Below are positions 9,801 to 63,100 of a DNA stretch of 64,000 nt, piece by piece. The stretch comes from Deltaproteobacteria bacterium (GTDB lineage Bacteria; Bdellovibrionota; JACOXK01; 2-02-FULL-40-11), in NCBI GenBank assembly GCA_016198185.1, contig JACQJD010000046.1, positions 9,242 to 73,241 of the forward strand, written 5' to 3'. Below the pieces are notes generated by a model that made no database searches, was not told where the DNA came from, and saw only the letters and a program-made list of their open reading frames with translations. A program made the position numbers and the translations under genes. Each line of letters starts with the position of its first letter. Positions within the stretch are counted from its first letter, which is position 1.

Positions 9801-9825
9801 CTATTTACAAAACGGGAAATAAAAA

Positions 9826-9965
9826 AGAAGCTTTCGATCTTATTCATTCCATTTGGCCAGCCGATGTTTCTGGAAAAAATAATTTTCTGACTGCCTATGA
9901 AGACGCACTAAAACAATCGAATTTTTATCCGGGGTTTGAAAAACAACTTAGGCTGTCACAATAAC
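9826..9965 (+). pseudogene. C-terminal remnant of a paralogue of the 13498..14373 secreted-protein gene
   Basis: Translates to AFDLIHSIWPADVSGKNNFLTAYEDALKQSNFYPGFEKQLRLSQ*, which aligns with the last 45 aa of the 13498..14373 ORF. No upstream coding sequence remains. Confidence 0.5.
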
Positions 9966-10025
9966 ATCATAGGCCTTGGAATGTTGTTCAATACGATCCA
10001 CTTGTTTATCGAAAACCTGACTCCT
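9948..10025 (-). pseudogene. C-terminal remnant of a paralogue of the 34727..35545 gene
   Basis: The minus strand encodes ...IEQHSKAYDVIVTA*, identical to the C-terminus of the 34727..35545 ORF. It overlaps the plus-strand remnant tail-to-tail, as in the intact locus. Confidence 0.5.
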
Positions 10026-11248
10026 CAGACAGAGAATTGAACCCCCGCTTTCGCCAGGCGAGCATACAGAATCAATCCCAACGCTGTCGACGGAGTCCAA
10101 AAACCACCCTTCAAACTCGAAAATGCATCGGCGTTTTCCACCAAACATAACGCGGACTCGCAGCTCAGCACTGCCGTCGCCTTGTTGCCCGGATCGCCCG
10201 GATACGACATCTCAAACTGCGAGACGAGCTCCTTGCCGCTGTAAGCATAAAACTGTGCGCGGAAAAATCCGTTTTCTTGAACGTCCGGCGAAGGACCCTG
10301 CCCTGACTTCACTCCAAATTTCTTTAAAAGTTTGAGGACCCACGGGTTGCGTCCCACGCGATAGAACGCTGCTGCGCCAGCCACATAGGCCCAGGCCTTT
10401 GCCGCAGAGGCGCCCTTAGACAAGCGCATAAGTTCGACGTACTGAAAAGATCCCTGATCTCCGGCTGTCTTCCCCAAACGCAAAGCCTGCGATCGATAAA
10501 CTACTTTGGAGTTGATCGGCTCCATGAAAAACGGAGGAGCTGTGACACCGGCGGCTGGAACCCATACTGGTTTTTTTACCTCGGGATAGTTAAACTTGAC
10601 GCGCGCGTCCTTTGGAACCAGGAGCGAAAGATTGCGCAACCGTTGCTGATCGTCGTTGCTCAATGCCAGCATATCCAGCATCGTTTCATACGTCCCGCCA
10701 TTGATTCCTCCGCGCACAGAAAACAGACTCACAACTTTAGTCACCGGACGCAAAGCATCCTTTTCGCGAGCCAGCTCCACGACCCACCAGGCACCCAGAT
10801 CCGATGGCACGGAATCGAAGCCTGAAAATGGGATCAGGATCGCTCCGCTTGCCGACGCCTGAGGCGCGTATTTTTCGATCATCCGCTCAACCCAGAGAGG
10901 CTCGCCGGTGATGTCCAGGTAGTGCGTCCCGAGCTTTGCACAGGCCGCGACGATGTTTTCTCCGGAACGTCCAAAGGGCCCCGCGTAGTTGATAGCGACT
11001 CGGGTCTGCGAGATCAGATTGTGCACGCCTTCCCCGTCTGCGTGATCCACGATCACATATTCAGCGGGCTGTGATTGGAAAGGACGAAGGACTTCCTTCA
11101 GACGATCCATTTTGTCTCGGCTTCGCCCTGCCACCGCCCATCGGACTTTTCCAGAAACATTTCGGGCGAAGTACTGGGCGGCTACCTTTCCTGCAAAGCC
11201 GGCCGAACCAAAAACGATCAAATCAAATTTACGGGAACTTTGTATCAT
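10025..11248 (-). CDS. Saccharopine dehydrogenase-like NAD(P)-binding oxidoreductase, on a GC-rich patch
   Basis: N-terminal 'FDLIVFGSAGFAGKVAAQYF' Rossmann motif; 407 aa. GC is markedly higher (about 55-60%) than the roughly 40% surroundings. Confidence 0.6.
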   Translation of the reverse strand: MIQSSRKFDLIVFGSAGFAGKVAAQYFARNVSGKVRWAVAGRSRDKMDRLKEVLRPFQSQPAEYVIVDHADGEGVHNLISQTRVAINYAGPFGRSGENIVAACAKLGTHYLDITGEPLWVERMIEKYAPQASASGAILIPFSGFDSVPSDLGAWWVVELAREKDALRPVTKVVSLFSVRGGINGGTYETMLDMLALSNDDQQRLRNLSLLVPKDARVKFNYPEVKKPVWVPAAGVTAPPFFMEPINSKVVYRSQALRLGKTAGDQGSFQYVELMRLSKGASAAKAWAYVAGAAAFYRVGRNPWVLKLLKKFGVKSGQGPSPDVQENGFFRAQFYAYSGKELVSQFEMSYPGDPGNKATAVLSCESALCLVENADAFSSLKGGFWTPSTALGLILYARLAKAGVQFSV

Positions 11249-11467
11249 TTGAAGTTGATAACACTACAGACATAAACTTAGAAGATTTATTCTGTTTTCT
11301 TTTGGTTTGAATATTTATCGCGATAAAAACCGAAAATATATAGTGTTCAAAATTTGAATCGGACCATGGAAAATAGCGGCTCTCTTTCCCCATAAATTGA
11401 CATCCTAGAATTTGTCGTCAATTTTTTCGATAGCTTAAAGTTAAGATGAATTATGCACTACGTGCAT

Positions 11468-11629
11468 AATTCCCCCGAGCCCTAAAAGGGCGAGAGGGGC
11501 CCCATGCGTTGGGGAAAGATTTTGAATATTGTCAGGATGGAAGGCAGCCCGTCATGCCGAGCGTTAGCGAGGCATCTCGGTGTTTAAGCCAAGGTAGTAG
11601 CGTCATTCCGAACGAAGTGAGGAATCTCT
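11468..11629 (+). repeat. Array of three CCGAG..CGAGG mini-palindrome variants (plus orientation)
   Basis: aattcccccgagccctaaaagggcgagaggggcccc; cgtcatgccgagcgttagcgaggcatctcgg; cgtcattccgaacgaagtgaggaatctct. Confidence 0.6.
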
Positions 11630-11674
11630 ACGCAAATAGAATGTAGTGACTGCCTTTTGGTAAAAAGAAATGCT

Positions 11675-12157
11675 CTATTCTCCTCCTCCATATTTCACTG
11701 ATGACTCTTTTATAGGACTTATCTTTTTACCTAAAAAATCACAGATATAAGCTGTTACAATAAATTCTCCAAAGGTCGTACTTTCCAAAAAAACTGGAAC
11801 ATGCATATTTTGATTTTCTTCCAAGAAAGAAAATTTATGTTTTTTTTCATAAAGTATTTCAATTTTATCTTTTACTTTCTTTTGAATTTTAATAAAAACT
11901 GAATCTGCCTTTGTTGATGTATTCTTATTCGCCTCTATAACGAATAATGTGCGATTTGATGGATGCTTTAGGCTTCCCTCTCCAATCGATGAATTCCATA
12001 TATTGAAATCCGGATTAAAGATATTTTCAGACCATCCCCCAACACCATGGTAATACAAAAAACCTTTGACAGATAAAATTTCTGGAACTTTCTCTTGCGC
12101 AGCGAATAAAGGAAAGGAAAAGAGAAAGAAAGTTAGAACAAGAAAATATGTTTTCAT
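11675..12157 (-). CDS. Hypothetical small secreted protein
   Basis: Signal peptide MKTYFLVLTFFLFSFPLFAAQ (start taken at the internal Met of the 172-aa ORF). Flanked by inverted mini-palindrome arrays. Confidence 0.45.
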   Translation of the reverse strand: MKTYFLVLTFFLFSFPLFAAQEKVPEILSVKGFLYYHGVGGWSENIFNPDFNIWNSSIGEGSLKHPSNRTLFVIEANKNTSTKADSVFIKIQKKVKDKIEILYEKKHKFSFLEENQNMHVPVFLESTTFGEFIVTAYICDFLGKKISPIKESSVKYGGGE

Positions 12158-12219
12158 CAGCGATTTATAGCAAAGCATATCGATATAGATCAATAATTTT
12201 TGAAGACTTCCAATTCACA

Positions 12220-12401
12220 GAGATTCCTCACTTCGTTCGGAATGACAATATTACTCTGGTATACATCGATGAGACCCCTCACTTGCGTTCGGGGTGACGT
12301 GTCTAAGCTTATCCTGGCTTGCAGCCCAGTCTTTCCCTGGTGCGGGGAGATCCTCTCGGCTCTTCGAGCCTCGGGATGAATTAGCGCACATGCGCTAATT
12401 C
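12220..12401 (-). repeat. Mirror-image array of CCGAG..CGAGG mini-palindrome variants plus a perfect 24-bp palindrome
   Basis: agagattcctcacttcgttcggaatgac (reverse complement of the copy at 11601), gagacccctcacttgcgttcggggtgacg, ggagatcctctcggctcttcgagcctcgggatg, then gaattagcgcacatgcgctaattc. Confidence 0.6.
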
Positions 12402-12530
12402 AATCTAACTATCCTTCCCCTCCCCAAAAACCTCAAAAAAAGCCCCTGTTTCTACCAGCCAGACTGTGACAATTGGCCTCGTATTTAAGCCCTTGCTGTT
12501 GGCCCATGGAGACCGAATTTTTCGATAGTC
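12385..12530 (+). repeat. About 140 bp conserved 'P' element (copy 1), candidate small RNA or mobile module
   Basis: Near-identical to 33318..33462 (...ctaactatccttcccc...gcccctgtttctaccagccagact...ggcctcgtatttaagcccttgctgttggcccatggagaccgaatttttcgata). Both copies sit about 30 bp upstream of a hairpin element. Confidence 0.55.
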
Positions 12531-12557
12531 CTGTAGAGGGTATTTCGGCCTTGATAA

Positions 12558-12645
12558 GGTGTTCGCGTAGCGCGCGGTGTGGCGGCCCAGGACGCGTGCT
12601 ACGCGAACACAACCAAGTCCTTAGAAATATTGACTTTTTCTTTTC
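12558..12645 (+). repeat. Hairpin element A (type-1 arm / core / type-1 arm / type-1 tail)
   Basis: ggtgttcgcgtagcgcgc - ggtgtggcggcccaggacgcg - tgctacgcgaacac, then the tail aaccaagtccttagaaatattgactttttcttttc. Confidence 0.7.
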
Positions 12646-12706
12646 AACTCTCTTATGAGCCATTATATTTACTGACACGAAATTATTCTTTTGTTAATTT
12701 TCACAT

Positions 12707-13510
12707 GTGGCTGGAATAAAATTTCCAAAAATTAAACTACCGAAACTAAAGTGGCCGGAAAAACCACGTCAAAAAACATCGAAAAAGACATCGTCAAAAG
12801 AAAAGAAAGTACATCCTTGGAGACTCTGCCCACTGGGCCAACATTGGGTGCGAACTCATCCCATGCACGTGCCTCCAAGCAAGAAAAATCCTGCAGGCTC
12901 TGTTACCTCTCGTAAAGAACATTGCGCAAGAAATCCAACAGGTAAAGATCAACTCTATCCCGACGAAATTCTTGAAATGACAGATAGACATTTTTCTAAA
13001 GCCACAGAACTCCCCTGCCCTTTTAATTTAGGATTTTCAAAAGGGAATGATTATGACTTATTAATTGCGGGATGGACACAATACTGGAATGAGATTCTTA
13101 AGTCTGAGATTCCCCTGGGAAAAAATCTGGTTAAAGCTTTGATCGCAAGTGAATCTGGCTTTGATCCCAAAATTTTAGCAAATAAAAAAGATTCTAATAG
13201 TGCTCGCGGACTGATGTAAATCACCAATGCCACGCGAAAAATATTAGGGAATGAAAAGGGCGAACTTAAAGAACATTATATTACTGTCACTAAGGAAGAT
13301 CTCAATAATCCAAATATAAATATATGCACCGGCATACGTTGGCTCTTTCATAAACAAAAATTGGCTTCAGCGAGATTAAGGCGAAATGCCTCATGGGAAG
13401 AGACTATTTTTGAATACAAAGGTGGCAGAAGCACTTCTTCATCTCGGGCCAATAAGTTAATGGACAAGTTTCGAGAATGTCTCGTAAAGTTTGAGATGTG
13501 TGTAAAAAAA
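12707..13510 (+). pseudogene. SLT-domain lytic transglycosylase disrupted by one in-frame TAA
   Basis: 'ALIASESGFDPKILANKKDSNSARGLM*ITNAT...NPNINICTGIRWL' is an SLT signature (catalytic ES..., GLMQ). TAA at 13217-13219 occupies the Q (CAA) position of GLMQ. The frame continues to 13510. Confidence 0.65.
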
Positions 13511-14373
13511 TAAAAAAATATTTTTTATTCTTTGGTTTTATTTTAAGTATTTTGCTGACCAGCGATACGGCCAATCTATTCAAGGTTGTTTACAAAGGAG
13601 ATCCGTTGTGTCAGGAAAATACAATATTGATAGAACAAAAGCATGACCATGGTTATGACATCACCGTCTCAAGAGCCGAAGACTGGATATGTCAATCCAT
13701 CGATATCAAAAAAAATGGAAAATTACTTTTCCATAATGAAGAAATTGGCGGTTACTATTTCTTAAGTGATAACTTCGAAGAACATGGCAACCCATTCTTT
13801 TTTTTACCCGGTAATATCAATCCCCATTTTGTATTTTCCAAATGGACAGGGGGCGCCCATTGCTGCTATTCCCTTCATATTTTTTCATTGGGTCAAGATT
13901 TTCGAGAAGTAGCCGCAATTGAGGGTGGAAACTCCCAACCCATTCTTAAAGACCTCGATGGAGATCACATTCCAGAAATTGAAGTTTTAGATGATTTTTT
14001 AGCCTACCTTTTTTCAAGTTTTGCCACCTCAGCTTACGGGGCTGTCATACTGAAATATTCTAATGGAAAATATTATGTAGCAGCAGACATTATGAAAAAA
14101 CCGCGACCCCATTCCAATCTCTGGAAATCTAAAATTTATTCTTGGAAAAATGACTTACGTAAAAAAGGTCCAGAATGGCCTCCCCCGTCTCTCATCCAAA
14201 CCATGACAGATTTAATATTTACAGGAAATAAAAAAGTAGCTTTCGATCTTATTCATTCGATTTGGCCACCCGAGGTTTCTGGAAAAAATGACTTTCTATC
14301 TGAGTATGAAAAAGCATTAGCACAGTCCAATTTTTACCCAGAATTTGAAAAGAAACTTAAGCTGTTACAATAA
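13498..14373 (+). CDS. Hypothetical secreted protein ('gene A' family, the intact copy)
   Basis: 291 aa with GTG start and N-terminal hydrophobic signal. The C-terminal 45 aa recur as remnants at 9826 and 34667. Confidence 0.45.
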   Translation: MCKKIKKYFLFFGFILSILLTSDTANLFKVVYKGDPLCQENTILIEQKHDHGYDITVSRAEDWICQSIDIKKNGKLLFHNEEIGGYYFLSDNFEEHGNPFFFLPGNINPHFVFSKWTGGAHCCYSLHIFSLGQDFREVAAIEGGNSQPILKDLDGDHIPEIEVLDDFLAYLFSSFATSAYGAVILKYSNGKYYVAADIMKKPRPHSNLWKSKIYSWKNDLRKKGPEWPPPSLIQTMTDLIFTGNKKVAFDLIHSIWPPEVSGKNDFLSEYEKALAQSNFYPEFEKKLKLLQ

Positions 14374-14854: not shown

Positions 14855-14941
14855 CATTTCGACCAGCGCGCGGTGTGGCGGCCCAGGACGCGCGCTACGC
14901 GAACACCACCAGGTCCTTAGAAATATTGACTTTTTCTTATC
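14855..14941 (+). repeat. Hairpin element B (type-2 left arm / core / type-1 right arm)
   Basis: gcatttcgaccagcgcgc - ggtgtggcggcccaggacgcg - cgctacgcgaacacc - accaggtccttagaaatattgactttttcttatc. Confidence 0.7.
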
Positions 14942-14953
14942 AACACCTCACTT

Positions 14954-16123
14954 TTACTTCAGTAAATAATCCTTATAGAAATCCAAGATCGGTAAAACTT
15001 TAATTCGTTGATCTATTTTTCTGGCCTTATCAAAAAGACCGATAACCAAAGCCTCTTTGCATGAATATTTTTCTAAAAAAGATTTTAATCCATTTAAATC
15101 TTTTGGATGAAGCGTTGAAGAAAATTTAAACTCACATGCCAAAAGCCCCTGAGGCGATTCCCAAACCAAATCCACTTCTACGCCTCCGTGTGTACGCCAA
15201 TAATACAATTCCCCTTTTTTCTTTTGATAATGTAACTGCTTAATAATTTCCAAAATCATGACATTTTCAAATAGACGCCCTTCATCAATTGGTTTCTGTG
15301 CTAAAGCTTGCGCAACCCCTACATCAAAAAAATAAAATTTATGCCCCGTAAAAAGTCGTTCACGTGCTTTTTTTAAGTATGGATCTAGGCGGTGAACAAT
15401 GAGTGTATCCTCTAAAATTTCATAATAACTTTTAATGGAGGGGGGACTTAGACCCACATCTCGTCCCAATGTAGAATATTGAATAAGCTGACCTAATTCT
15501 TCTGCAGCCAATGATAAAAAATGAACAAACGCAGCTCAATTTCGAGTATTGGCTTCGGCCTCTATTTCTTCTTTTAAATAAATATCTGTGTAATATTTTA
15601 GTTCCTCCTCTGGCTTTTCGGTACGAATAACCCCTGGTAAAAGCCCCTCCTTAAAAACCCTTCTTAATGCCTCAAATCCAACATTATTCTTTTCCAGTAA
15701 ACCTAACTCCACAAAAGATAATGGAAATAATTTCGCGCTGTGAATCCGACCTGGGAGTAAATTTACTTTTTTTTGTCTTAATTTCCTTGCGGAAGATCCT
15801 GTAATGAGCGGAATCAAAGCATTTTTATGCTTATCTAGTAAAACTTGAAGATCATCCAATAGCTCTGGAAATTTTTGAATTTCATCAAGAAAAAGATAAA
15901 GGAATTTATGCTTGTCTAATGCCGCCTCTATTTCTTCTGAAAAAAGAGAAGCTTGTCTTTGCAGTCGTAAATATGTCGCTCGACTATTAAAATTGTAAGA
16001 AAGCACGTTCCCCTTTTCTTTTAAAAATTGCTCGATAAGGTACGTTTTACCTACCTGCCTAGGACCTAAAAGAAAAAACCCCTTCTTAAACCTTGAAATG
16101 TCAATCTGACGCTTAAAATCCAT
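14954..16123 (-). pseudogene. AAA+ ATPase (AAA_14 + DUF4143 type) interrupted by a single in-frame TGA
   Basis: Walker A 'LLGPRQVGKTYL' in the upstream part (15536..16123) and a DUF4143-like C-terminal part (14954..15511) lie in the same frame, separated only by TGA: ...EANTRN*AAFVHFLSLAAEELGQ. Confidence 0.65.
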
Positions 16124-21044: not shown

Positions 21045-21143
21045 GGCTTTGGTCAGGTGTTCGCGTAGCGCGCGGTGTGGCGGCCCAAGACGCGCGCTGG
21101 TCGAAATCTCTAAGGCCGTGTTAAATCTACGTTTTTTCTTCTC
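21045..21143 (+). repeat. Hairpin element C (type-1 left arm / core variant 'caaga' / type-2 right arm and tail)
   Basis: gctttggtcaggtgttcgcgtagcgcgc - ggtgtggcggcccaagacgcg - cgctggtcgaaatctctaaggccgtgttaaatctacgttttttcttctc. Confidence 0.7.
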
Positions 21144-26730: not shown

Positions 26731-27863
26731 GAAAACCATCGCAATTAGCATTGATACTGCAATTTCTAGATAAACTTCTTTATTTTGCCATTGTTCCCAA
26801 CATTATCCTGCTCGTGCATCGTGCGGAGATGCTCAGCCTTTCAGATTTAGCCTTTTTCTTTGCCATTCATATTATTCCCTTAAGAGGCCTACCTGTCATC
26901 ATTGGATATTATGTAGATCGAGCCCATTTAAAACAGGCACTTTTGGGTGGATTTATATTACAAGCTTTCTTTATAATCTCGCTGTGTTTTGTATCACATC
27001 GTTGGTTATTTTTACTGTGCGGATTGGGCGCAGGGATGGGCGGTGGTATATTAGCGCCTGTTTTTAATAAAATTCTTGCAGATGGGCAACAACACCATGA
27101 AGAAAAACAAAATTTTCTATATCAATTTTTAGGAATTAATATTGCAGCTGCGGTGGCATCGCTTTTAGCATGGCCTTATCTTTCGCTGTATACACTTCTT
27201 TTTTTTATCCCCGCATGTGTCAGCCTGATCTTAATGGTAAAAAACTTAGATCCCATTACAAGAATGGCAGCTGATGAAGTTCATCCAAATTTTTTTAGAT
27301 CTTTAACTCACATTTTAAAACATGCCCCTGCGCTTAAAATATTAATTTTACTCTCATGCGAATGGGCCATGTATACAATGCTCATGAGTGGCATTCCTGC
27401 AATTGCGGTATCCATTAATGAAAAAATCAATGGCAATCTGTGGATAGGACTCAATGCCGTTACATGCATCCTGGGTTATTTTATTTTCATTCAAAAATTA
27501 AAAGACATGTCCAGAGATCACGTACGCTTGCAACAGGGAATGGTTCTATCCTCCATTGGCATGGTAATTATTGCCTGTGCACCTTCTTTGTTTTTTATTT
27601 TTTTGGCAGTGGTTGTATTTAGCTTAGGAGAATTGATTCTTTCCCCGACGGGAGCTCGCTCTTTAGCCAAGCTTGCTCATCCCAGTATGCGAGGTCAATA
27701 TGTCTCTTCGCTGCTGCTTGCGGGAAGTCTTGGAGAAGGTGGCGGTCAACTTTTTTTAAGCCTCTATCCTCACCCTAGAATGGTTTGCTTTATCGTAGGC
27801 ATCGTAAGTTTATTTTTCACCTGGTATTTGATGCACGCTACGCGAACACCACCAAATCCTTAG
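26727..27863 (+). CDS. MFS-type transporter
   Basis: Multiple TM helices; the start ATG overlaps the ATP-grasp stop (ATGA). The C-terminal codons are supplied by the right half of hairpin element F. Confidence 0.6.
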   Translation: MRKPSQLALILQFLDKLLYFAIVPNIILLVHRAEMLSLSDLAFFFAIHIIPLRGLPVIIGYYVDRAHLKQALLGGFILQAFFIISLCFVSHRWLFLLCGLGAGMGGGILAPVFNKILADGQQHHEEKQNFLYQFLGINIAAAVASLLAWPYLSLYTLLFFIPACVSLILMVKNLDPITRMAADEVHPNFFRSLTHILKHAPALKILILLSCEWAMYTMLMSGIPAIAVSINEKINGNLWIGLNAVTCILGYFIFIQKLKDMSRDHVRLQQGMVLSSIGMVIIACAPSLFFIFLAVVVFSLGELILSPTGARSLAKLAHPSMRGQYVSSLLLAGSLGEGGGQLFLSLYPHPRMVCFIVGIVSLFFTWYLMHATRTPPNP

Positions 27864-27912
27864 AAACATTGACTTTTTCTTTTCCACCCCTCTCGATGAT
27901 CTGGCTCTTTTG
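27834..27912 (+). repeat. Hairpin element F (right half only: type-1 arm and tail, fused to the MFS 3' end)
   Basis: cacgctacgcgaacaccaccaaatccttagaaacattgactttttcttttccacccctctcgatgatctggctcttttgg. The tail matches element E. Confidence 0.6.
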
Positions 27913-28024
27913 GACTTTTTCTTATCCTCCACGCGTCATCTTTGCTGAAATCGGGGGTTTATGACATACTAAATCAGTGATCAATGCTTCTATGCGTTTA
28001 TGAACAAAAAAATGAGAGGGTCAT

Positions 28025-30189: not shown

Positions 30190-30624
30190 TGGCAAAAAAC
30201 TGTGGGGAATACTGATCAACATTAGATTTAATTGTCCATACAGTGCTCTTAAAATTTCACTGTTCTATATCGGTGCCAGCTTACCTGCTCAAACGTCCAA
30301 ATGCAAAAGTGGCTCGACACCATTTACAAGAGATAATCACACTTTTGGGCTGCCAACTCTGGCAGCCCATTCCCACCTTTTTTAAAAGGTTTTTTCATTC
30401 CACGCCCTTTATTTTTTTTCAAAAAAGACACTCTTTCACCGTAAATTGACACCCTAGAATTTATCGTTACTTATTTTTTCAGCTTAAAGTTAAGATGTAA
30501 CCTTGAATATCGCTCCCATTCCAAAGTCTAGGCAGATCGTTTGGAAAATTAAAGTACGTGTAACAACCTTCAAGAAGATAGTTATTGAGAAAAATATTTT
30601 AAAGAGAGTGAGCCAAAACAATAA

Positions 30625-33317: not shown

Positions 33318-33462
33318 AGTTCAATCTAACTATCCTTCCCCCCTCCCAAAAAATCTCAAAAAAGCCCCTGTTTCTACCAGCCAGACTATGGCAATCGGCC
33401 TCGTATTTAAGCCCTTGCTGTTGGCCCATGGAGACCGAATTTTTCGATATGTACCTATGAGG
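33318..33462 (+). repeat. About 140 bp 'P' element (copy 2)
   Basis: About 90% identical to 12385..12530, again followed by a hairpin element. Confidence 0.55.
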
Positions 33463-33473
33463 GTAACCTATTG

Positions 33474-33572
33474 CTTTGGTCAGGTGTTCGCGTAGCGCGC
33501 GGTGTGGCGGCCCAGGACGCGCGCTGGTCGAAATCTCTAAGGCCGCGTTAAATCTACGTTTTTTCTTCTCAA
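33474..33572 (+). repeat. Hairpin element D (type-1 left arm / core / type-2 right arm and tail)
   Basis: Near-identical to element C (...gctttggtcaggtgttcgcgtagcgcgcggtgtggcggcccaggacgcgcgctggtcgaaatctctaaggccgcgttaaatctacg...). Confidence 0.7.
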
Positions 33573-35559: not shown

Positions 35560-35676
35560 CAGGTGTTCGCGTAGCGCGCGGTGTGGCGGCCCAGGACGCG
35601 CGCTACGCGAACACCACCAGGTTCTTAGAAACATTGACTTTTTCTTTTCCACCCCTCTCGATGATCCAGCTCTTTT
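35560..35676 (+). repeat. Hairpin element E (type-1 / core / type-1, long tail)
   Basis: aggtgttcgcgtagcgcgc - ggtgtggcggcccaggacgcg - cgctacgcgaacacc - accaggttcttagaaacattgactttttcttttccacccctctcgatgatccagctcttttgg. Confidence 0.7.
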
Positions 35677-35699
35677 GGGTTTTTTATACAACAATCAAG

Positions 35700-59742: not shown

Positions 59743-60017
59743 GGATAATCTTTTTTAGGATCGTTACTCTGTTACGTTCTTTTTTTAGATCCTTATTTCA
59801 TTATAACCGCCGACGGAAAAAGGTCAATTTTTAATTTTAAAAATTCATACTTCTTTGGGCAATACAAACCCAAAATGGCCCCCAGTGACACAAAACGTCA
59901 CTTCTCAAAACGCTGGCGAACGAGCGTTCCCAACCCATTGAAGTAACTCATTTTCTATAGTATACAATTTGGCATTCTTTTTGCTCCTCTTTCTGTAGGG
60001 AGGGTGTCGAATAAGTC

Positions 60018-60083
60018 ATCCCGAGAGCCGAAGGCTCGAGGGATCTCATCGTAGATTCCTCGCACGTTGTGCTCGGAATGACA
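60018..60083. repeat. Pair of oppositely oriented CCGAG..CGAGG mini-palindrome variants upstream of the giant ORF
   Basis: gtcatcccgagagccgaaggctcgagggatc, then gattcctcgcacgttgtgctcggaatgac (reverse complement of the gtcattccgagc...gaggaatc consensus). Confidence 0.55.
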
Positions 60084-60113: not shown

Positions 60114-63100
60114 ATGAACGACCGCCTCGCTAAACGTTTGTTTTATTGGGTGCCAAAAATTGTCACTCAGGTTATCGGTTTGAGTCTCCTGCCAATAGCT
60201 CTGGGGCTCGAACTTCAATGCCGCCTCAGAGCTATTGGCAGGGGACTCACGTTGCTTCCCTTTGACCTTGCTACAGTTTGTATCTTAGGGATGACTGCTG
60301 TATCCGCTTTTGCAGAGCCTCTCGTGTGCTCCGTAGAAAATCGCTATTCGCCAATGAGCTTCCAAGAGTTTGTTCTGCAAGGAACGCCTTCATTTCCGCT
60401 CTTTTCCAATCAAGAGCTCAAAGAATATTATTCACCTCAAGAGCTCTCTGACTTTGAAAAGGTCCTTTCAGCCGTTTATCTTTTTCCACAAGATTTAGAT
60501 ATTGATCATCTTTTTTTAGAAAATTTAGCGGTAGAAGATATTTCTTCTTTGGCCCAAGAATTTTTTGACGCGGAAGGTCTTTCTTCAGCGAAAGAATCAA
60601 GTGAATTTAAAGAAGCCCTTTTGGGATGGCAAGCATTTGGCGTTGATCCCATTCTACTCATCAATACCTGGCAGGTTACAAAACTAGAACTCGCAGATGC
60701 TGAATTTATTTCTTGGCTTCATGAAACAGATTCTTTTTCGGATGAAGATTTAAAAGCTTCGCCTTCTACACTTTCCAAAGAACGAAAATATCATTTGATT
60801 AAAGAATATAAAATTGAACCTTTGATTTTAGAAATTCTTACCCAACGAATGATTTTAGCCATGATGGCAGTCTGGCAAGAAGAAGGGAAAGTGGATTTAA
60901 CCGAGTCTAATCTTTTGCATGAAAAATTACTTTCTTATCAAAAAATGCAACCTCCACTGGTTGACTTAGAAGATGTCCAAAAACAAAAAGAAAAGATTTT
61001 AAAGGAAGTAAAAGCCCAAAAGAAAGCGCTTTTAGCTTTCATCCCAAAAATGGAAGAAAATGCTTTGGTAGAATTCTTTAAAAGTTTCCCACGAATGATG
61101 GAACGAGCGCTTAATCTCTCCCTTGCCAATATTGCTTACTGGGATGGAAAGCTCTGGGGAGCGGCTTTTGGCAAGAACTGGGATTGGTCAGATGTAGGCG
61201 CAGATATTATTAATTTTAACAGAGAGATGATGAATAATTATGGAGGTGGTTCTTATTTGGGAAGCGATTTAGAATTTGCAAACGTAGCACGAGAAAAGAA
61301 ATTCTTTGGATTGAATCTAGAAAAAACATTTGGGCAAGAGGTTGAGAAATTCTATGCAGAGCATGTCAATTTGGAACTTGCCGCAGAATCTTTTAATGTT
61401 TTTGAACCTGTCGGAAGAGCTTTGGCCCCCATAGCCCAACCTATCCTCAATTATCTTTATGAAAAGAAAAAAGATTATGACCTTTGGGTCACTGGTTTAA
61501 CAGAAAAACAATATGAACGGGCTCTTCAAGAAGATAGGTACTTGCAACTGGGACAATTGGGATTGGATGCAGCCCTTACTTCGCTTGAGCTACTTGCCTT
61601 TCGAGGAACGAGAATTTCTTCCCAAAGACTGGCCAGACTCTCAAAACTAAAGAGAGCCACCCCTTCTAGAATACGATTTGTAAAAAGACAAAGGACGTGG
61701 AGGGCATTTCAACCGCTCATCGTTGCAGGAGTTTTGGGAGGGGCTTCGTCGCTGGGGGCAGAACTCTATCAAGTCGGAGAAAACAAGAAATCATTTAGTT
61801 TCTTTAGACTGCTGCATCAAACAAATCTTTCAACAGAAGGCAGTCTTATATTTATGAAGATGACCCAAGCCCTCAGTAATCTTGTAGCAAGACAAGGGGG
61901 ATTTACACCGAAAGCTGTAGAACACGCCAAAGTACTTTCAAAGAGTCTCGATTTCACAGAAGGTTCACTCGATATTCCAGGAACGATTGCGATGATAAAG
62001 AAAGCCCGAAGTAATCTGGGACTGCTTGGAAGCTCACTTATTTTGGGAGCCAATATTTTTGATACGACAGATGTTTCGGTGTCTGGGGTGCTTCATTCTT
62101 TGAAAGCCCTGATACCAGGCAAATCAAAAGCTATTCCGAGTGAACACGTCATTCCGAATGAACTTGTCATTCCGAGCGAACACGTCATTCCGAATGAACA
62201 CGTCATTCCGAGCGAAGCGAGGAATCCCATCGATTCAGCTGATTACAACGCCACCCTTGCAAAAGCCCGTCTTGTCTTGGGACAAGACATCCCAGATCGG
62301 CTTGCAGAGCTCATTTACGCCTCCCACCGCGTTGGGTACGCAGAACCAGGAAAAGATGGATCTCCTGCGTGCATCGGAAATTACACCGATCTTCAACTCA
62401 TTGAAAAAACAAAAATCCTCACCCTCGCCGTGGAAGAAGGCTGGATCACCTACCCACAACTTAAAAAACTCATCCAAGAAGGAGTGGTGGGATCTCAAAT
62501 TGCTCCCATCATCCGACCTGGCGAAATGCGAATTCCACCCGAAATCAAAAAGGCTATTGAAGAAGGAGAAGGCAAGCGCGATTTCATAGCCTACGTGACC
62601 CAAATCTGGGGAAAAAAGTTTAAAGCGGCTGTCACCGCCAAAGCACTTTCTGATGCGCATCAAATTCTAAACACCTACGAAACCATGGTAAAAGAGCCTG
62701 CGATCCTCAAAGACAAAAAAGCAGAAGCTGCGCTCATTGAAAAAGTTGTAGCCTTGGGAAAACGACGAGCACCTATTTTAGATCAGACCTTCGTTCCTCA
62801 AATCGAAAGATTATATCGAGAATCTTCTATCGACGACCGATTCCAACCCCACCATCAATGGCGAATGATTGACCTCTTACGACAAATGGACACTGCCGAA
62901 GCCGCGACATCACTCGTCACCCTGCTTTCAGAAGAAAGAGATGACGACATGGTCCAACCTTTCAAACGTGGCCTGCTTCGAATGAAATCCGCCAAAGCTG
63001 TGATTCAAACCAAAGCTGTAACATCTTCGGCGTCACAACCTGTCAAAGACTTAGCGGAATTGTACCGAAAGGCCGAAGAAAGTCCGTCTGGTCTCCTCAC

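Follow-up and report, generated by a model that had tools for sequence, protein, structure and literature searches.

Miniature repeats such as REPINs (hairpin-forming doublets of repetitive extragenic palindromic, REP, sequences) and MITEs, transposable elements of miniature size with inverted repeats, are usually viewed as empty passengers. The REP head typically reads GTAG. Bacterial interspersed mosaic elements (BIMEs) of Escherichia coli and the BOX elements of pneumococcus are composites of few short hairpin modules in fixed order and alternating orientation. Rickettsia palindromic elements (RPEs) are palindromic repeats of small size, able to reside in frame within coding sequences, and Correia elements as well as IS630-derived MITEs such as Nezha go along with a TA target duplication. 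Two studies present REPINs as two inverted units with a short spacer between, lineage-specific and vertically inherited (PMC3337134, PMC3116915). Mobile insertion cassettes (MICs) carry passenger genes that differ between copies, and a cognate transposase acting in trans is believed to activate them (PMC3129680). Here we describe an element of 966 bp (~970 bp) at positions 11442-12407 of a 64,000-nucleotide stretch, the window, of contig JACQJD010000046.1 from a Deltaproteobacteria bacterium (Bdellovibrionota). A single gene is located inside mirror-image chains of hairpins, and ends of the same types were found around other genes in related contigs. On sequence comparison we give about an even chance to the reading that the element is a non-autonomous foldback cassette, MIC- or REPIN-like, with interchangeable cargo and mobilised in trans.

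Anatomy of the cassette and recurrence of its ends

A first-pass annotation of the letters had proposed a secreted-protein gene between mirrored arrays of mini-palindromes from 11468 to 12401. Alignment of the region against its own reverse complement revealed a true foldback with a unique one-gene centre: 11442-11632 and the reverse complement of 12216-12407 reached a global alignment score of 126 (z = 21.8; shuffle mean 15.2, sd 5.1) with identical bases at 139 of 179 aligned positions, whereas the direct orientation scored only 31. The similarity ends inward at GGAATCTCT on both sides, and the unique centre comprises 589 nt (about 589-597 nt). Both proposed limits had to be moved outwards. 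The element starts at 11442; position 11468 lies within an overlooked left palindrome (11448-11472), the counterpart of the one on the right. The right limit is 12407 instead of 12401, with a terminal AATCTA beyond the palindrome. The repeat units themselves were recovered as described, on the left ccccgag..cgagagggg (11473-11499), gtcatgccgagcgttagcgaggcatc (11551-11576) and gtcattccgaacgaagtgaggaatc (11602-11626), and in reverse complement on the right the ttcc unit (12221-12246), cctctcgg..cctcggg (12350-12377) and the perfect 24-bp palindrome (12378-12401). The ttcc unit is indeed nearest the gene on both sides, with 28 nt identical between them. A mirrored middle unit is present on both sides, but not as the same variant: its stem is ATGCC on the left and ACCCC on the right.

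From outside to inside, each arm is composed of a terminal hexamer (TAAGAT, on the right AATCTA), a palindrome of 24-25 bp, hairpin 1, hairpin 2, a spacer and two copies of a unit termed U. The outer ~100 nt, that is the terminal palindrome and the two hairpins, form module P. Hairpin 1 has the frame CC-GA-[stem-loop]-GAGA-GG and hairpin 2 the frame CCCC..GGGG, followed by AAAGA and a spacer with CAGGAT at its end; U has the form GTCA-[5-bp stem]-GA-[R-C-G-loop-C-G-Y]-GA-[stem']-TC. The left P begins with TAAGAT and continues with the palindrome GAATTATGCAC-TAC-GTGCATAATTC (11448-11472), hairpin 1 as CCCC-GA-GCCC-TAAAA-GGGC-GAGA-GGGG (11473-11499), hairpin 2 as CCCCA-TGCGT-TGGGG (11500-11514) and AAAGATTTT..CAGGATG. 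The right P presents hairpin 2' (12335-12348), hairpin 1' (12350-12377), the palindrome GAATTAGCGCA-CA-TGCGCTAATTC (12378-12401) and the terminal AATCTA (12402-12407). The CCCC..GGGG hairpin had been missed on both sides. A covariance model of P (R1) detected only two copies in the 64-kb window, the mirrored pair, and in the inner stem of hairpin 1 three of four pairs are changed on both sides. As single-stranded DNA, the left arm (LE) folds into a chain of local hairpins (-32.2 kcal/mol, z = -3.3), and so does the right arm (RE; z = -2.7). The arm hairpins include no terminator with a T-tail, and promoter-like matches were fewer than expected from shuffling. Apart from two tRNAs elsewhere, Rfam 15 had no match in the window at the gathering score; at E<=1 within 11250-12720 only one chance miRNA match appeared.

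A metagenome pattern scan yielded 15 matches, ten of them chance matches without P. Left-type P, 89-93 % identical to the window copy, was located on five Joint Genome Institute (JGI) metagenome contigs. Two of the five show the complete mirrored architecture. The element on contig L131 (888 bp, arm symmetry z = 4.8) encloses a gene for a 187-aa GNAT acetyltransferase (PF13302), and that on L134 (592 bp, z = 9.2) a gene for a 72-aa DUF2007 protein. The alignment of all arms showed the left-type end TAAGAT-GAATTATGCAC conserved across the instances, while the right-type end reads, in reverse complement, TAGATT-GAATyAGCGCA, with the terminus TAGATTGAATyA common to the window, L131 and L134. LE and RE of one element are ~70 % identical, left ends of different contigs ~90 %; the two end types had therefore diverged before the spread of the copies. 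Within each element, the U(+) and U(-) nearest the centre match in stem type (window ATTCC, L131 ATCCA, L134 ATCCT). In L131 and L134 the cargo gene points toward the right end; the window has it pointing toward the left. The distant homologues (47 % identical) of the L131 acetyltransferase gene have no arms, neither P0203, which lies among tightly packed genes, nor L171. On L133 (883-1107) two P are arranged in tandem and direct orientation with U between them and an AbrB/PIN toxin-antitoxin pair after them, so P also occurs in non-mirrored arrangements. The left end on L135 lies ~290 nt downstream of tRNA-Ser(GCU) (1147-1239). A tRNA hotspot was rejected as a general feature; tRNAs are nearby in L135 and L001, but not in the window and the other contigs. 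Plasmid records gave no match to the element, and viral contigs were devoid of P and carried U in only 15 stretches.

The sole ORF between the window arms is the gene of the secreted protein; a transposase gene is not inside. The designation of this ORF as a signal-peptide gene is sustained by a hydrophobic, signal-like N-terminal helix. The protein is identical to HY390_03630, a hypothetical protein of the NCBI metagenome-assembled genome 'Deltaproteobacteria bacterium'. Only one close relative was found, a 78 % identical protein on the 1.1-kb JGI contig L001. The gene pair shares 83 % of its DNA sequence with a dN/dS of 0.225, which indicates that the gene is under purifying selection; the left ends, in comparison, are 89-93 % identical between the window and the JGI contigs. 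The search for the cargo without its flanks, suggested by the first-pass annotation, thus had a result: the L001 homologue lacks hairpin arms, and the DNA similarity spans ATG to stop only. It adjoins tRNA-Thr(CGU) (666-737) and has an alanine-racemase-like gene as a further neighbour. A sensitive search collected 80 cluster representatives of 150-170 aa, and an AlphaFold (AF2) model built with these relatives predicted a beta-sandwich (pLDDT 91.6). Its fold matches are weak, with TM ~0.45 to the lipid- or glycan-binding sandwiches of PDE6D, UNC119, NPC2 and Wzt-C, and Pfam has no family for the protein.

Table 1. Coordinates of the features (positions refer to the window unless a contig is named)
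Feature	Position	Strand	Remarks
Left arm (LE), whole	11442..11629	+	inverted copy of 12219-12407
Right arm (RE), whole	12219..12407	-	inverted copy of 11442-11629
Outer module P, left type	11442..11539	+	covariance model R1 108.5 bits
Outer module P, right type	12319..12407	-	R1 68.4 bits; ~81 % identical to L131 right end
U unit, ATGCC stem, GTTA loop	11551..11578	+	
U unit, canonical GTCATTCCGAACGAAGTGAGGAATC, innermost left	11602..11629	+	100 % identical over 28 nt to 12219-12246
Cargo gene	11675..12157	-	160-aa secreted beta-sandwich protein
U unit, canonical, innermost right	12219..12246	-	tail-to-tail with 11602-11629
U unit, ACCCC stem, GCAA loop	12272..12298	-	
Separate tail-to-tail U doublet	60015..60082	.	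32 nt upstream of unrelated large ORF
Four truncated 18-nt half-units and one full U	62147..62227	+	in frame in ORF 60114 to past 64000
Flank module A, TTGACA box	11382..11441	+	outside arms; 84 % identical to 30431-30497
Flank module B1	12408..12556	+	outside arms; 89 % identical to 33320-33480
Six-copy repeat	12557-12648, 14865-14949, 21045-21143, 27830-27920, 33473-33570, 35561-35685		
RAYT-like ORFs	L063 193-702; L154 1170-1817; L046 1-387; L155 1410-2165		

The dispersed unit U and a candidate nuclease

The first-pass annotation had named repeats around unrelated genes without mirror symmetry as the mark of generic clusters. Unit U behaves in this way; the whole arm does not, since the P pair is confined to one place in the window and the end types recur elsewhere. 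By this comparison the whole arm, unlike U, is not a generic repeat. The exact 25-mer GTCATTCCGARCGAAGYGAGGAATC was present in at least 120 stretches of GTDB genomes from more than 10 phyla, by record title Acidobacteriota, Chloroflexota, Bacteroidota, Planctomycetota, Nitrospirota, Gemmatimonadota, Armatimonadota, Verrucomicrobiota, Patescibacteria, Desulfobacterota, Bdellovibrionota and Pseudomonadota. The matches listed include two cultured isolates; Hymenobacter lutimineralis and Luteimonas saliphila are cultivable carriers. The sequence around the 25-mer is not conserved between copies. The window has seven full units, and loci of other genomes, 866 kb in total, have 237. The units are mostly extragenic with some copies inside coding sequences, and the head GTCA is present in all of them. 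Neighbouring units are tail-to-tail in 62 of 96 pairs from other genomes, with centres mostly of 5-60 nt; another recurrent habit is a stack of truncated 5' half-units immediately before a full one.

A pattern that fixed only the unpaired letters of U had 191 matches, where ~1.7 were expected by chance. Among these, 44 had non-canonical stems, and 42-44 of them were paired at every stem position by T-A, C-G or G-C alternatives. This covariation and the double changes in hairpin 1 of P show, at the level of the alignments, that the hairpins are under selection. The loop of U is GNA in 178 of the 191 matches. A GNA triloop closed by C-G with tandem G-A flanks characterises the DNA mini-hairpins d(GCGNAGC) of very high stability, and the mini-hairpin d(GCGAAGC) was reportedly found to be very stable by Hirao and co-workers. 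By analogy, the loop signature favours a structure of U at the DNA level.

Insertions of units into coding sequences were observed twice. The large ORF from 60114 onwards (at least 1295 aa, no Pfam match) has a repeat insertion that translates into ..VIPSEHVIPNELVIPSEHVIPNEHVIPSEARNP.., and on L131 a ThiC-like ORF that follows a TPP riboswitch (1520-1619) contains, in its N-terminal part, a half-unit and a full U (~1745-1800), translated as ..DPSLSLRMTNEPLRMTNE... Relative to transcription, U is oriented there opposite to the window case. Such in-frame insertions matter for annotation, because many 'hypothetical' peptides like VIPSEARNL or SLRSE would derive from units.

Outside the lineage of the window, U was found beside a small nuclease gene. 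A long-centre U doublet in a Bacteroidales locus (L027, 6472-7094) is placed around the gene of a 102-aa GIY-YIG nuclease (PF01541), and a 49 %-identical homologue in a Dehalococcoidia locus (L074, 4617-5160) is likewise enclosed by U. On L074, the 5' end of the GIY-YIG gene is duplicated in tandem together with a unit. In six loci selected by the gene (L137, L147, L167-L170, at ~1100-2100) U directly flanks GIY-YIG, mostly as U(+)..gene..U(-), and in one of them the stop codon of the nuclease gene lies inside a unit. Of the 8 loci examined, which come from at least two phyla, all 8 thus have U beside a small (~100 aa) stand-alone GIY-YIG gene; the sole background figure for this is that 16.5 % of the ORFs in unit-selected loci have a unit no more than 150 nt away. 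This small GIY-YIG family has at least ~7,900 homologues, many of them on very short contigs. No GIY-YIG gene was encountered in ~98 kb of the lineage of the window, which tells nothing should each genome have only one copy. The REP-associated tyrosine transposases (RAYTs) were covered by a rough screen: the four RAYT-like (Y1) ORFs in unit-selected loci (Table 1) are flanked by their own, different palindromes, e.g., GCGGCGCTTAAGCGCCGC or GGCGCAGGCTTCCAGCCTGTGGG, and U is 640-3900 nt away. Classical REP/RAYT systems would accordingly coexist with U in the same genomes. Judged by these neighbourhoods, the small GIY-YIG nuclease and not a RAYT could be the partner enzyme of U. Searches of the accessible literature found no link between GIY-YIG genes and extragenic palindromes, and with the repeat sequence only primer coincidences.

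We propose tentatively, and with more doubt than confidence, that the U hairpin and the small stand-alone GIY-YIG nuclease form a pan-bacterial counterpart of REP/RAYT with a different catalytic fold and horizontal spread. The matched U(+)/U(-) pair would then define a copyable or exchangeable segment, and one system would give rise to empty doublets, to nuclease-carrying units and to gene cassettes with acquired lineage-specific P ends. These cassettes would represent a previously undescribed class of hairpin-bounded gene cassettes.

Mobile cassette or other origin

As a mobile foldback cassette, the element would have composite ends, each with a lineage-specific outer P and two REP-like U inside. 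The innermost U pair corresponds to the usual tail-to-tail doublet of the family, with a gene-bearing centre of 589-597 nt in place of 5-60 nt. We infer mobility and an acting enzyme: the cassette is, or was, presumably transferred or swapped as a whole. An enzyme acting in trans would be likely to recognise the single-stranded hairpins, in the manner of MITEs, MICs and REPINs; or else the cargo could be replaced through homologous exchange between the conserved arms. If so, hairpin ends that enclose interchangeable single genes would provide a small, integrase-free route for the shuffling of accessory genes, seen here only in uncultured lineages. Unit U raises a question of its own, namely whether an abundant, uncharacterised GIY-YIG family is the partner of a 25-nt hairpin that is identical across more than 10 phyla.

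Several observations weigh against the mobile cassette. Only three complete instances are available, two of them from one metagenome. Three more left ends have no visible partner, with toxin-antitoxin genes or the contig end next to them; two of these contigs end too soon, and on L122 no right end follows within 2.1 kb. The proposal of a foldback element with a cargo gene from the first-pass annotation holds as far as the foldback and the recurrence of the ends with other genes are concerned. The rest found no support: neither a target-site duplication (TSD; none at 11468/12401 and none at the corrected 11442/12407), nor an empty site, nor a nearby transposase gene was found. Only TA is common outside both ends of the three elements, possibly as the element's own sequence, and no identical element was found in two contexts; for the L131 cargo this covered the armless homologues, its only near-identical protein having no accessible contig. 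The 11-nt direct repeat TTTTTCGATAG (11423 and 12518) was rejected as a TSD; a match like this is expected by chance, and the second copy of the flank modules does not retain it. Transposase, RAYT, integrase and GIY-YIG genes were not found in the window or in ~34 kb of related contigs, and the GIY-YIG evidence originates from other phyla, with six of the eight loci on mutually related contigs. Finally, the flanks themselves are repeated. The matches outside the arms extend from 11382-11448 to 30431-30497 (A) and from 12399-12556 to 33320-33480 (B1), so that a second A/B1 pair, at 30.4 and 33.3 kb, brackets three other genes. This second pair encloses 2.8 kb with a weak HhH-GPD-like gene and an AbiEi/AbiEii pair. 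It retains the terminal TAAGATG and TTCAATCTA and lacks the hairpin arms, and a mobile cassette leaves it unexplained. A and B may constitute a larger frame, a target that is preferred, or an outer end. In L135, too, a sequence resembling A stands before the left end.

By gene content, the setting of the cassette is an accessory island. The surroundings (10-37 kb) contain two AbiEi/AbiEii pairs and further genes of toxin-antitoxin type, besides split genes, fragments of a serine recombinase in duplicate and one gene of 55 % GC. The latter, a saccharopine-dehydrogenase-like gene (10025-11248) directly left of the element, stands out from a background of ~40 % GC and was probably acquired horizontally. 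Two fragments of a large serine recombinase (PF07508; 35583-36800 and 16797-17326) are partial duplicates, 82-89 % identical and 19 kb apart, and bracket much of the accessory region. Signs of decay are an AAA_14/DUF4143 ATPase broken into two ORFs (14954-16123), an SLT-like ORF (12707-13219) that terminates just after the catalytic motif, and a 153-bp intergenic copy (9812-9964) of the 3' end of ORF 13498-14373. The intergenic regions of the window are a mosaic of many repeated modules. One of them, a hairpin with a 13-bp stem, GTGTTCGCGTAGC..GCTACGCGAACAC, and a ~40-nt tail, has six copies in the 64 kb (Table 1), all intergenic, 90-98 % identical and in mosaic with other modules.

The main competing explanation assumes generic REP/BIME-like clusters that built up independently beside the gene, with the symmetry as an orientation preference relative to gene ends and no movement of a unit. 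Much of the above is in line with it: the dispersal of U through more than 10 phyla, the further doublet at 60015-60082 and the tandem within the coding sequence (62147-62227), the intergenic mosaic, and the failure to find either a TSD or an enzyme. We nevertheless regard it as unlikely, though deserving serious weight, because the similarity spans the entire arms, spacers and P included, in the same order on both sides. Moreover, P is nowhere else in the window, left- and right-type ends are each conserved elsewhere around other genes, and the innermost units agree in stem type in three of three elements.

Quite unlikely is an invertible segment, in which a recombinase, or RecA acting on the identical inner units of 28-41 nt, would flip the gene and so turn it from sense to antisense, or back, with respect to a promoter outside the segment, e.g., the TTGACA box of flank A. 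A gene-sized stretch between inverted repeats invites this explanation, as do the cargo direction, reversed in the window and forward in L131 and L134, and a conserved TTGACA module which, at the window element, at 30.4 kb and in L135 alike, is directed into the left end. The serine-recombinase fragments in the window would fit as well, but they are 23 kb off and decayed in appearance. A consensus scan of flank A detected no promoter, the arms are only ~70 % identical outside the universal U, and the cargos differ, so the orientations are not comparable as two states of one locus.

A role at the RNA level, with the hairpin chains as elements of the 5' and 3' untranslated regions (UTRs) that stabilise or insulate the cargo mRNA like REP in E. 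coli, is highly doubtful in our view. The hairpins covary, their position fits UTRs of the cargo that might even pair with each other, and units are tolerated in coding sequences. Opposed to this, the cargo direction flips relative to the asymmetric ends, U has both orientations relative to transcription (window coding sequence versus ThiC-like ORF of L131), T-tail terminators and Rfam matches at permissive thresholds are missing, and the GNA triloop signature points to stable DNA mini-hairpins.

A one-off local inverted duplication, in which template switching at a palindrome would have carried a copy of one intergenic repeat cluster across the gene, is very improbable. In its favour are the contiguous, block-like arms and the tendency of palindromes to provoke such events, yet the same end types accompany other genes in L131 and L134, and the LE of the window is nearer to the left ends of other contigs (~90 %) than to its own RE (~70 %). 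The core sites of integrons follow the consensus GTTRRRY and RYYYAAC. An integron-type gene cassette with the arms as attC-like sites is barely credible, for although the cargo spectrum (small unknown ORFs, GNAT, toxin-antitoxin neighbours) resembles chromosomal integron arrays and the window ends read GTTAAGA and ATCTAAC, these core-like letters are not conserved and absent from L131 and L134, two mirrored arms replace the single attC at one cassette end, the arms are chains of short hairpins instead of one long imperfect hairpin, and no tyrosine recombinase or integrase was found in the window.

Comparison with known systems

Integron cassettes share with the element small, promoter-poor accessory genes of similar kinds, bounded by structured repeats that fold as single strands; two mirrored ends, non-conserved core letters and the failure to find an integrase set it apart. 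With Correia elements and Nezha it has inverted ends in common and possibly the TA at both junctions, which is not demonstrable here as a duplication. In contrast to the element, these MITEs carry no genes, and no IS630-type transposase was found. The in-frame units of the window (62147-62227) and of the ThiC-like ORF of L131 recall RPEs, but RPEs measure 100-150 bp and are restricted to one genus, whereas U is ~25 nt long and pan-bacterial. The modular arms resemble BIMEs and BOX elements; the latter are compact (~40-300 bp), enclose no genes and have unrelated sequences.

The likeness to REPs and REPINs is closest at the level of U, a short imperfect palindrome with many dispersed copies, mostly between genes, and covarying stems. 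As in REPINs, the units are commonly arranged as inverted pairs with a short spacer, and as in REP/RAYT systems a single enzyme gene can be enclosed by units, in the case of U the GIY-YIG gene. The differences are equally distinct. The head of U is GTCA and not GTAG, and an identical 25-mer across more than 10 phyla is unlike the lineage-specific REPINs. The RAYT-like genes of the sampled loci have other palindromes, as far as the rough screen tells, and the candidate partner of U is a GIY-YIG nuclease instead of an HUH/Y1 enzyme. In the window, moreover, the centre of the doublet holds a gene, and P as a second, outer module caps both ends.

MICs and MITEs are matched by the two inverted ends without a transposase gene inside the window cassette, and MICs in particular by the different passengers, the secreted-protein gene in the window, GNAT in L131 and DUF2007 in L134. 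The ends of MICs are inverted repeats of a known IS family with flanking direct repeats, while for the window cassette no parent IS is known and no TSD was seen, and its type of end is a hairpin chain of 100-190 nt, unlike those of MICs and MITEs. The cassette departs from the defining features of each of these groups; on the best-supported reading, it is nevertheless closest in function to MICs/MITEs and REPINs.

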